Shown here: piece after piece, positions 33,357 to 34,236 of the stretch
How positions within the stretch are numbered: the stretch's first letter is position 1
Layout: each line of letters begins with the position of its first letter
Origin: Eubacteriales bacterium SKADARSKE-1
Lineage (GTDB): Bacteria > Bacillota > Clostridia > Oscillospirales > Acutalibacteraceae
DNA: 64,000 nucleotides
Reading direction: 5' to 3'
Assembly (NCBI GenBank): GCA_030920305.1
Contig: JARLUB010000004.1
Span: 43,558 to 107,557, forward strand
Program-made: the position numbers and the translations under genes
The notes under the pieces: generated by a model
The model's input: the letters and a program-made list of their open reading frames with translations, nothing else
What the model was told of the DNA's origin: nothing
The model's database searches: none

Positions 33357-33387
33357 AAAAAAGCTTCCAGTAAAAAGGAAGCTTTTT
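33357..33387. terminator. Bidirectional terminator between mntP-like gene and GG-leader gene
   Basis: The stem is aaaaaagcttcc / ggaagcttttt. Confidence 0.8.
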
Positions 33388-33402: not shown

Positions 33403-33657
33403 TTATAATATTGAGTAGTCAATAGCATCTAAGCGATTAGCTTCTATAGCTGCTGCCGGTTTTGTTAGTTGTCCAGTTCCGCCATAGCGAACTATTGATT
33501 GAACAACTCCCATACCACTTGTATTTAAGACGAGAAAGTAAGTTCCTCTGTCAACTACAATACCACCGGAAACGTTGCTAATATCCTCATGAGAAAGTTT
33601 CGTAATTGGTTCATTTTCCTTATTTGTATAATTTACTACTTTATTTTTTCTAAACAT
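33403..33657 (-). CDS. Double-glycine-leader mini-protein, paralog A (84 aa)
   Basis: The leader is MFRKNKVVNYTNKENEPITKLSHEDISNVSGG. The core is IVVDRGTYFLVLNTSGMGVVQSIVRYGGTGQLTKPAAAIEANRLDAIDYSIL. RBS is 'aaggag'. Confidence 0.8.
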   Translation of the reverse strand: MFRKNKVVNYTNKENEPITKLSHEDISNVSGGIVVDRGTYFLVLNTSGMGVVQSIVRYGGTGQLTKPAAAIEANRLDAIDYSIL

Positions 33658-33708
33658 TTTAAACCAACTCCTTTTAATTTTTAGGCAGAGATCTCAAAGC
33701 CTGTATAT

Positions 33709-33737
33709 ATAATACAACAAAAAGAATATTTTGTCAA
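33709..33737 (-). promoter_or_regulatory. SigmaA-type promoter of GG-leader paralog A
   Basis: On the minus strand: TTGACA (33737-33732), 17-nt spacer, TATTAT (33714-33709). Confidence 0.65.
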
Positions 33738-33789
33738 GAATTTTATAAAAATTTTAGAAAATTATTGGAATATAGGCAGTAGGATTAAT

Positions 33790-33836
33790 AAAAAAAACAG
33801 GCTACAATAGTTTACAAACTATTGTAGCCTGTTTTT
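33790..33836 (-). terminator. Rho-independent terminator after GG-leader paralog B
   Basis: The long perfect stem is acaggctacaatagt / actattgtagcctgt, with flanking A- and T-runs. Confidence 0.85.
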
Positions 33837-33846
33837 CTATAAAAAA

Positions 33847-34101
33847 TTAAGGTTGCTTAGAATAATCAATAGCATCAAGTTTTATCGCTTCCGCATAAGC
33901 TTCTTGTTTAGTCATTCCAGAGTTTCCGCCATAAGATACTTTTGATTTTACAGCGCCCATACCACTTGTATTTATGACTAGGTAGAAAGACCCTGTATCT
34001 TTAATAAAGCCACCTGTAACCATACTAATGTCATCCTTACTAAGTTTTAAAAATTCTTCTGGTTTACTAATGTAGTCGGAAACTTTATTTCTTTTAAACA
34101 T
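33847..34101 (-). CDS. Double-glycine-leader mini-protein, paralog B (84 aa)
   Basis: The leader is MFKRNKVSDYISKPEEFLKLSKDDISMVTGG. The core is FIKDTGSFYLVINTSGMGAVKSKVSYGGNSGMTKQEAYAEAIKLDAIDYSKQP. RBS is 'aaggag'. Confidence 0.8.
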   Translation of the reverse strand: MFKRNKVSDYISKPEEFLKLSKDDISMVTGGFIKDTGSFYLVINTSGMGAVKSKVSYGGNSGMTKQEAYAEAIKLDAIDYSKQP

Positions 34102-34236
34102 TTAAACCACTCCTTAAAAAGATTATGTAAGTATGCTATATATATTTTTATATAAAAGATAATAGTTGTCAATCTTTTTTAGAAATAAAAAATACCCGAC
34201 TGAAACTTTTACAATCGGGCAATTTTTATTTATTTT

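Follow-up and report, generated by a model that had tools for sequence, protein, structure and literature searches.

Double-glycine-leader proteins with orphan cores: a paralogous pair probably exported by a remote peptidase-containing transporter in a small clostridial genome

What is exported, and towards which target, when small genes join the classic export signal of bacteriocins, a double-glycine (GG) leader, to cores of another kind? The question is raised by two adjacent genes, here called A and B, in the genome of Eubacteriales bacterium SKADARSKE-1, on a stretch of 64,000 nucleotides of contig JARLUB010000004.1 that was analysed as a whole (the window). A first-pass annotation had described the pair and had remarked that the cores depart from those of typical class II bacteriocins and that no immunity gene, modification enzyme or ATP-binding cassette (ABC) transporter with a peptidase domain (PCAT) lies nearby. 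Both remarks hold: the hydrophilic cores are close to neutral in charge and globular by prediction, and the neighbours are MntP, AzlD and AzlC genes. The reading favoured here, which appears reasonably probable from sequence comparisons, is that A and B give rise to unmodified mini-proteins, which a PCAT encoded elsewhere in the genome would cleave and export and which would act outside the cell. We infer cleavage, export and the absence of modification, as well as the target, from the features of the genes, of their relatives and of the genome that are described below.

Both genes lie on the minus strand, A at 33847–34101 and B at 33403–33657, where two adjacent open reading frames (ORFs) of 84 codons had been announced. 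Their products are 55% identical across 82 residues (E = 2e-30), which excludes a chance pairing and makes them paralogues, as had been claimed. The product of A comprises a leader of 31 amino acids (MFKRNKVSDYISKPEEFLKLSKDDISMVTGG, 34009–34101) and a core of 53 (33850–34008; 5.68 kDa, charge +0.8), and that of B a leader of 32 amino acids (MFRKNKVVNYTNKENEPITKLSHEDISNVSGG, 33562–33657) and a core of 52 (33406–33561; 5.53 kDa, charge −0.2). The translations end their leaders in LSHEDISNVSGG and LSKDDISMVTGG, the endings quoted at the outset. Orthologues of both genes, A′ and B′, occur on a contig from another sample (L008).

The leaders bear the marks of an export signal. The GG, whose conservation the first-pass annotation had treated as decisive, is invariant in all six known members of the family. 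Counting back from the cleavage site, with GG at −2/−1, leader A presents hydrophobic residues V(−4), I(−7), L(−12) and F(−15), and leader B V(−4), I(−7), L(−12) and I(−15); a hydrophobic residue at −4, −7 and −12 is kept in 6/6 members, with leader identity between paralogues as low as 28%. In the cryo-electron microscopy structure of the clostridial transporter PCAT1 with its substrate CtA, L(−7) and L(−12) build a hydrophobic knot with the peptidase domain, position −4 tunes specificity, a narrow cleft requires Gly-Gly, and the leader alone sets specificity (PMC6959990). The leaders of A and B fit this PCAT1/LahT recognition pattern of hydrophobic residues at −4, −7 and −12 followed by GG (rule from PMC6959990), and the identification of a GG leader thus stands. 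Searches of A and B for a Nif11 or nitrile-hydratase-like leader domain (TIGR03798/TIGR03793 class) gave no match, the leaders being only 31–32 amino acids long.

The same leader is found on many other proteins of this bacterium. Scans of small ORFs with regular expressions, followed by curation, yield 42 GG-leader ORFs that fall into many unrelated core families and include several tandem paralogue pairs. Their consensus reads E(−13) L(−12) S(−11) D(−10) E/D(−9) D(−8) L(−7) x x V(−4) S/A(−3) G G, with acidic positions that were not forced by the regular expressions, and the leaders of A and B conform to it. The loosest expression gives 39 matches, where decoys made by reversal or shuffling give about 12, and uncurated counts therefore hold false positives. 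A 13-position hidden Markov model (HMM) of the leader, trained on this genome and hence favouring its own count, matches 49 times here, 9 times in the relative G020, 7 times in the relative G006 and 0–2 times in each of seven relatives that lack the ATP/ADP translocase discussed below. Genome-wide, about 45–50 GG-leader ORFs can be listed, mostly with orphan cores, a very large number for a genome of 1.38 Mb; examples lie at C1:254696-255838, C1:48813-50551, C12:96833-97419, C12:227525-228998 and C19:67877-73205 (C numbers designate contigs of the assembly).

Exporters of the matching class are present, away from the pair. The assembly counts 1.38 Mb at 33% G+C in 23 contigs, is 98% complete and includes the window on C18. 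No C39 transporter is found in the window, in agreement with the first-pass annotation, and the search for PCAT genes elsewhere that it had proposed turns up two C39-ABC genes (PF03412), at C17:8661-10835 (E = 2e-38) and C19:75432-77609 (E = 4e-34). Each belongs to a complete NHLP-type three-gene system of PCAT, ABC and HlyD components. On C17 and C19, respectively, the scores are 912 and 919 bits for TIGR03796 (cut-off 853), 705 and 720 bits for TIGR03797 (cut-off 709), and 102 and 160 bits for TIGR03794 (cut-off 156). Both peptidase domains retain the ECGAA motif, which we take to include the catalytic cysteine. About 17 Nif11-leader precursors come after the C19 locus; no substrate gene adjoins the C17 locus. 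The HlyD-like partner on C17 (C17:10839-12184 region) is truncated to 199 amino acids and falls below the TIGR03794 cut-off; upstream of the same system lie two small genes that resemble, by eye, a STAS anti-anti-sigma factor and a SpoIIAB-like kinase.

The conservation of the genes between species indicates that they encode real proteins. The family consists of six members, a total that comes from profile searches of a collection of 5.8 billion clusters: this genome has three of them, and two Logan contigs of run SRR8925790 carry the other three. When 1.84 billion representatives were searched exhaustively with phmmer, four real matches came back: A, B, a third paralogue C of the same genome (P0003, C1:81286-81537) and P0002, the B orthologue (B′) on L008. 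No further member was found in JGI metagenomes, in one genome per GTDB species or in 60 relatives that share family or order with this bacterium. Three large beta-propeller or repeat proteins (P0004–P0006; phmmer E 1e-4 to 5e-4) were rejected at an hhalign probability of 0.4%; their similarity, which runs through repeated 'Y-F-I-K-T-x-N-T-G-S-G'-like hairpins, probably adds up from chance resemblances.

The gene order found here recurs in the second species, with the 3′ end of azlD, A′, B′ and the 3′ end of mntP on L008, and the other Logan contig (L007) mirrors the C1 locus between a penicillin-binding protein (PBP) gene and malQ. The duplication that gave A and B is older than the split of the two species. 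Amino acid identity and the non-synonymous rate (dN) amount to 57% and 0.32 for A/A′, 60% and 0.36 for B/B′, and 73% and 0.16 for C/C′, next to 76% and 0.12 for the flanking PBP and 80% and 0.11 for the flanking malQ, and A and B evolve at about threefold the non-synonymous rate of the flanking genes. The ratio of non-synonymous to synonymous change (dN/dS) is 0.16–0.39, a rough estimate with synonymous sites near saturation, yet clearly below 1, so that A, B and C are real protein-coding genes under purifying selection. Promoters, 5′ untranslated regions and ribosome-binding sites (RBSs) are better conserved between the species than the coding regions.

The cores form an orphan family with a predicted fold. 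Across the members they measure 5.5–6.0 kDa, with a net charge of −1.2 to +0.8, a grand average of hydropathy of −0.56 to +0.42, 9–12% Gly and no Cys. For A and B, with about 11–12% Gly, this agrees with the first-pass description of cores that are Cys-free and neither Gly-rich nor cationic. AlphaFold2, run on the core with an alignment of six sequences (A3), gives a mean predicted local distance difference test score (pLDDT) of 85.3 and a predicted template modelling score (pTM) of 0.67, the five models all lying at 83–85 pLDDT. The predicted elements are beta1 (residues 2–4), beta2 (8–13), beta3 (20–25) and a helix (34–45), and this beta3-alpha arrangement lends computational support to the 'beta-hairpin plus helix mini-domain' that had been guessed from the sequence. 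In the full-length model the leader is disordered except for a short helix at residues 23–27. Twelve core residues are invariant (V11, N13, G16, G18, G27, A37, A41, L44, D45, D48, Y49, S50): V11, A37, A41 and L44 seem to belong to the hydrophobic core, and the beta2–beta3 loop NTSGMG and the L-D-x-I-D-Y-S at the C terminus seem exposed. The strictly conserved NTSGMG hairpin loop and LDxIDYS end are likely to form a surface for contact with a partner, and for that reason the mature protein would more plausibly bind a partner, as a ligand or effector, than permeabilise membranes as a bacteriocin.

The profile and structure searches that had been recommended for the cores were run and gave no significant match, and none relates the cores to a known intracellular family, by sequence or by fold. 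No model of Pfam, NCBIfam, PHROGs or PADLOC reaches its cut-off; the best hit of a sequence-profile search of the PDB has E = 0.087; Foldseek gives at best E = 0.68 (full-length model) and 1.5 (core only) against the PDB and 0.55 against BFVD. As modelled, the core fold is therefore one with no relative identified in these sequence and structure searches. A resemblance to AP2 or integrase-arm beta3-alpha domains recurs among the non-significant matches (query-normalized TM-score up to 0.71) and is read as a shared simple topology; a role in DNA binding is disfavoured by the near-neutral charge. Further candidates for distant relatives were discarded: the core of another GG-leader ORF in the window, at 8178–8405 (hhalign probability 0.5%), other GG-cargo families (hhalign probability <2%, nothing by BLAST) and the NF038167 'CTB family bacteriocin' model, which in a genome-wide scan matches many GG-leader ORFs, mostly through its own leader part.

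Given these features, export of A and B by a PCAT is likely, and the following course of events can be proposed. Each gene would be transcribed from its own sigma-A-type promoter. The leader of 31–32 amino acids would adopt a short amphipathic helix, and the C39 peptidase domain would recognise its hydrophobic residues at −4, −7, −12 and −15. One of the two NHLP-type PCAT/ABC/HlyD exporters would cut after Gly-Gly, and the same exporter would move the core of 52–53 amino acids across the single membrane. Outside, the core would fold, with a three-stranded sheet packing against one helix. Size should present no obstacle: the CtA cargo of 66 amino acids fits the 15,000 cubic-angstrom cavity of PCAT1 (PMC6959990), and the cargos of A and B, at 5.5–5.7 kDa, are smaller.

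Several points weigh against this reading. Both exporters are encoded on other contigs and neither is tied specifically to A or B. No curated GG-leader or bacteriocin HMM scores above its cut-off on A or B, the best being NF038167 with 15.4 bits where 32 are required. Inside PCAT1 the cargo lacks structure (PMC6959990), and the cores of A and B are predicted to be folded, by a structure prediction that depends on the six-sequence alignment; beta1 begins two residues past the cleavage site, and a pre-folded core could hamper processing, with beta1 so near GG in the model. An action on a host is suggested by context; no eukaryote-like homologue of the core was found, and we infer that the bacterium belongs to a parasitic clade of small genomes from its family assignment, its genome size and a shared translocase.

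The nature of the partner is bound up with the lifestyle of the organism. Its AspS is 65–69% identical to that of Oscillospiraceae-type metagenome-assembled genomes from the gut, e.g. Ca. Caccousia and Ca. Avimicrobium. A TLC-family ATP/ADP translocase is encoded at C12:50177-51643 (440 bits), with no match in 14 control genomes; in the set of 61 genomes of relatives it occurs in four, all of them small, namely this genome (G000), G006, G015 and G020, and the proteins of the latter three are 48–56% identical to the copy here. Spo0A is retained in this genome. G020 (RsTa-C01), which is placed in the same GTDB family, is 'Ca. Paraimprobicoccus trichonymphae', a symbiont inside the cells of Trichonympha agilis, a termite-gut protist, and belongs to a 'small genome clade' of putative energy parasites within the Acutalibacteraceae (PMC10579323). 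In that clade the export of eukaryote-like proteins is ascribed to Sec, and PCATs and GG leaders are not mentioned (PMC10579323). G020 and G006 each possess an NHLP PCAT above cut-off together with GG-leader ORFs, including in G006 a Nif11-leader protein with a cargo of 467 amino acids. These sequence features give the organism the look of an energy parasite associated with a protist.

This look, together with the presence of the same leader type on about 45–50 proteins, suggests that the target may be in a host cell. With their conserved loop and C-terminal motif, their fast evolution and their restriction to one lineage, the proteins fit a secreted binder that engages another organism, and between a host and a competitor as that organism, the host is slightly ahead. 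Provided that the mini-proteins are exported, a host-directed action would come just short of being probable, an antibacterial one would be distinctly less plausible, and an action of some other kind a little less plausible still. A wider proposal, which comes from context, is tentative and, on balance, doubtful: in this lineage of Gram-positive, apparently intracellular energy parasites, GG leaders and NHLP-type PCATs would form a general effector-secretion route into a protist host, and the about 45–50 GG-leader proteins would be its effectors. The set would then include the fast-evolving beta3-alpha family as well as a large proline-rich acidic Nif11-leader protein of the window, and A and B would be host-binding mini-effectors and not bacteriocins.

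Among other explanations, the one that survives best, while being unlikely, is that A and B are narrow-spectrum unmodified bacteriocins (class IId-like or microcin-like), exported by a PCAT and killing relatives through a specific receptor instead of pores. The leader is the one expected of them; tandem paralogues with a non-synonymous rate about 3x that of flanking genes are often seen in competition factors; and some cargos of the Nif11-leader proteins by the C19 PCAT are rich in Gly, Ala and Ser and bacteriocin-like in look. A classical bacteriocin is nevertheless disfavoured by the lack of an immunity-like small membrane protein at the three family loci and the syntenic loci, by the near-neutral, hydrophilic, predicted globular cores and by the apparently intracellular lifestyle, about 45–50 antibacterial peptides being hard to explain in an apparent intracellular energy parasite of 1.38 Mb.

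It is improbable that the proteins remain in the cytoplasm as small non-exported proteins in which the N-terminal GG is fortuitous or serves another purpose. The decoy matches of the loose leader expression, about 12 per genome, and the start of beta1 right after GG would be in line with this, but the retention of GG and of the three hydrophobic positions in every member despite the divergence of the leaders, the leader consensus that recurs in about 40 further small ORFs of a genome encoding two PCATs, and a leader predicted to be disordered and apart from the fold all speak for an export signal.

Peptides that are made on the ribosome and modified after translation (RiPPs) are the usual clients of NHLP-type exporters (TIGR03796 family), and a SPASM radical-SAM gene stands beside another GG-leader precursor of this genome (C17:46182-47807); the cores of A and B might accordingly be modified by a remote enzyme, e.g. 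a radical-SAM enzyme, prior to PCAT export. The chances of this are very slim: cores devoid of Cys exclude lanthionine, thiazole and sactionine-type chemistry, no modifying enzyme is encoded nearby at the syntenic loci or at any of the three loci of the family, the SPASM genes of the genome lying elsewhere, and the core is long, conserved throughout and predicted to fold unaided. Secreted quorum-sensing pheromones processed like ComC or BlpC, with which A and B share leader type and transporter class, are the least credible explanation of all, as folded cores of 52–53 amino acids far exceed known GG pheromones in size, A and B have no gene for a histidine kinase, a response regulator or an Rgg-type receptor beside them, and their promoters look strong and constitutive.

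If A and B are taken as exported, unmodified mini-proteins, several known systems invite comparison. Class II bacteriocin and pheromone precursors (lactococcin A, ComC, BlpC), handled by ABC-transporter maturation and secretion (AMS) proteins or PCATs, share with them the GG leader of about 30 amino acids, the hydrophobic residues at −4, −7 and −12, acidic residues between these, and C39-ABC transporters in the genome; A and B differ from them by a near-neutral hydrophilic core of predicted beta3-alpha fold, by the lack of an immunity gene, and by being monocistronic, distant from a transporter and without a curated bacteriocin model above cut-off. CtA, the 90-residue PCAT1 substrate of Clostridium thermocellum, is likened here by its description: it too is clostridial, with a GG leader of 24 amino acids and a cargo of 66, and differs in that its cargo is unstructured in the PCAT1 complex, whereas the core of A and B is predicted to be folded (PMC6959990). 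In Streptococcus pneumoniae, RtgS peptides likewise carry GG and use a dedicated PCAT (RtgAB) other than ComAB or BlpAB; their genes are encoded with the transporter and regulated by Rgg, and their sequences are unrelated to A and B (bioRxiv 10.1101/783472).

The exporter type points to another comparison. The TIGR03796/03797/03794 exporter of the NHLP/Nif11 systems (Haft-type NHLM systems) is found twice here, with about 17 Nif11-leader precursors by one copy. Precursors scattered far from their exporter are known in such systems. A and B depart from them by a short classical leader without a Nif11 or NHLP domain and by showing no sign of modification chemistry. The small-genome clade (Ca. 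Improbicoccus, Ca. Paraimprobicoccus) has in common with this bacterium the GTDB family, a low-GC genome of 1.0–1.4 Mb and the ATP/ADP translocase (PMC10579323). Its member RsTa-C01 also combines an NHLP PCAT with GG-leader ORFs; the A/B family is absent there and in 59 other relatives searched.

GG-leader cargos of unknown function are already known (CtA, pneumococcal Rtg), and to these A and B add an orphan core family. The main value of the pair is its context, a clostridial genome with an ATP/ADP translocase and about 45–50 ORFs with a PCAT-type leader, kin to a microscopically confirmed protist endosymbiont. If PCATs do deliver folded mini-proteins and larger cargos into the host, this would give a 'bacteriocin' transporter a new role and would provide a simple leader-based rule for listing the effectors of these unculturable bacteria. 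The cores are small enough for synthesis or expression, which makes processing, structure and partners directly testable.

The expression signals of the two genes were also located, all on the minus strand unless stated. An RBS and a hairpin terminator had been assigned to each gene, and both are present: AAGGAG at 34110–34115 for A and at 33668–33673 for B, each kept in L008; an intrinsic-terminator-like hairpin 3′ of A with a 20-bp stem and a T run (33792–33837); and a bidirectional one 3′ of B on both strands (33358–33387), common to the convergent mntP. The near-consensus promoter reported for one copy is found upstream of 33403–33657, where the promoter scan gives TTGACA-17-TATTAT (11/12; 33709–33737) for B; A is preceded by a sigma-70-type promoter-like site, TTGACA-17-AAAAAT (10/12; 34144–34172). 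In L008, TTGACA and an A/T-rich −10 region are kept upstream of A′, and promoter B, its 5′ untranslated region and its RBS are all kept. The 20-bp hairpin between A and B (33792–33837) is deleted there with promoter B retained, and read-through between the two genes may thus differ in the two species. A search of the locus with Rfam found no RNA family. The mntP-like gene and azlCD named as neighbours are recognised by Pfam as MntP, AzlD and AzlC; a DUF1540 protein and an HtrA-like protease come next.

Around the third paralogue, at C1:80944-81537 (L005 1153-1746), C is followed by a separate GG-leader ORF whose core of 26 amino acids is predicted as one helix (MAEEYAAKELITLAEKLKKNQFHIGD). The mirror locus (L007 489-1464), between the PBP gene and malQ, retains C′ and the helical-core GG-leader ORF and has a third GG-leader ORF.

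Two other GG-leader ORFs had been named in the window, and both are present on the minus strand. The first, at 8178–8405, encodes a mini-protein of 75 amino acids that belongs to the same export class, with a core family not detectably shared with A and B. The second, at 3437–4960, is a Nif11-type GG-leader protein (Pfam Nif11 25.2 bits, cut-off 23.8) with a long acidic proline-rich cargo, in which Pfam detects no WH2 domain at E <= 0.1. It shares with C2:15767-17281, C12:256097-257266 and L093 (G006:C79) an architecture in which a Nif11-type GG leader is followed by a hydrophobic transmembrane-like segment and then by a hydrophilic cargo of about 70–450 amino acids (cores of 91–467 amino acids). 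The position of the segment after GG suggests that cleavage would leave a surface-anchored protein. At C17:46182-47807, the SPASM-domain radical-SAM gene lies directly downstream of its GG-leader precursor, whose core contains Cys (VSSLKIDPKELQRSVCAYGCYAPGF...), and this is probably the one true RiPP locus of the genome.

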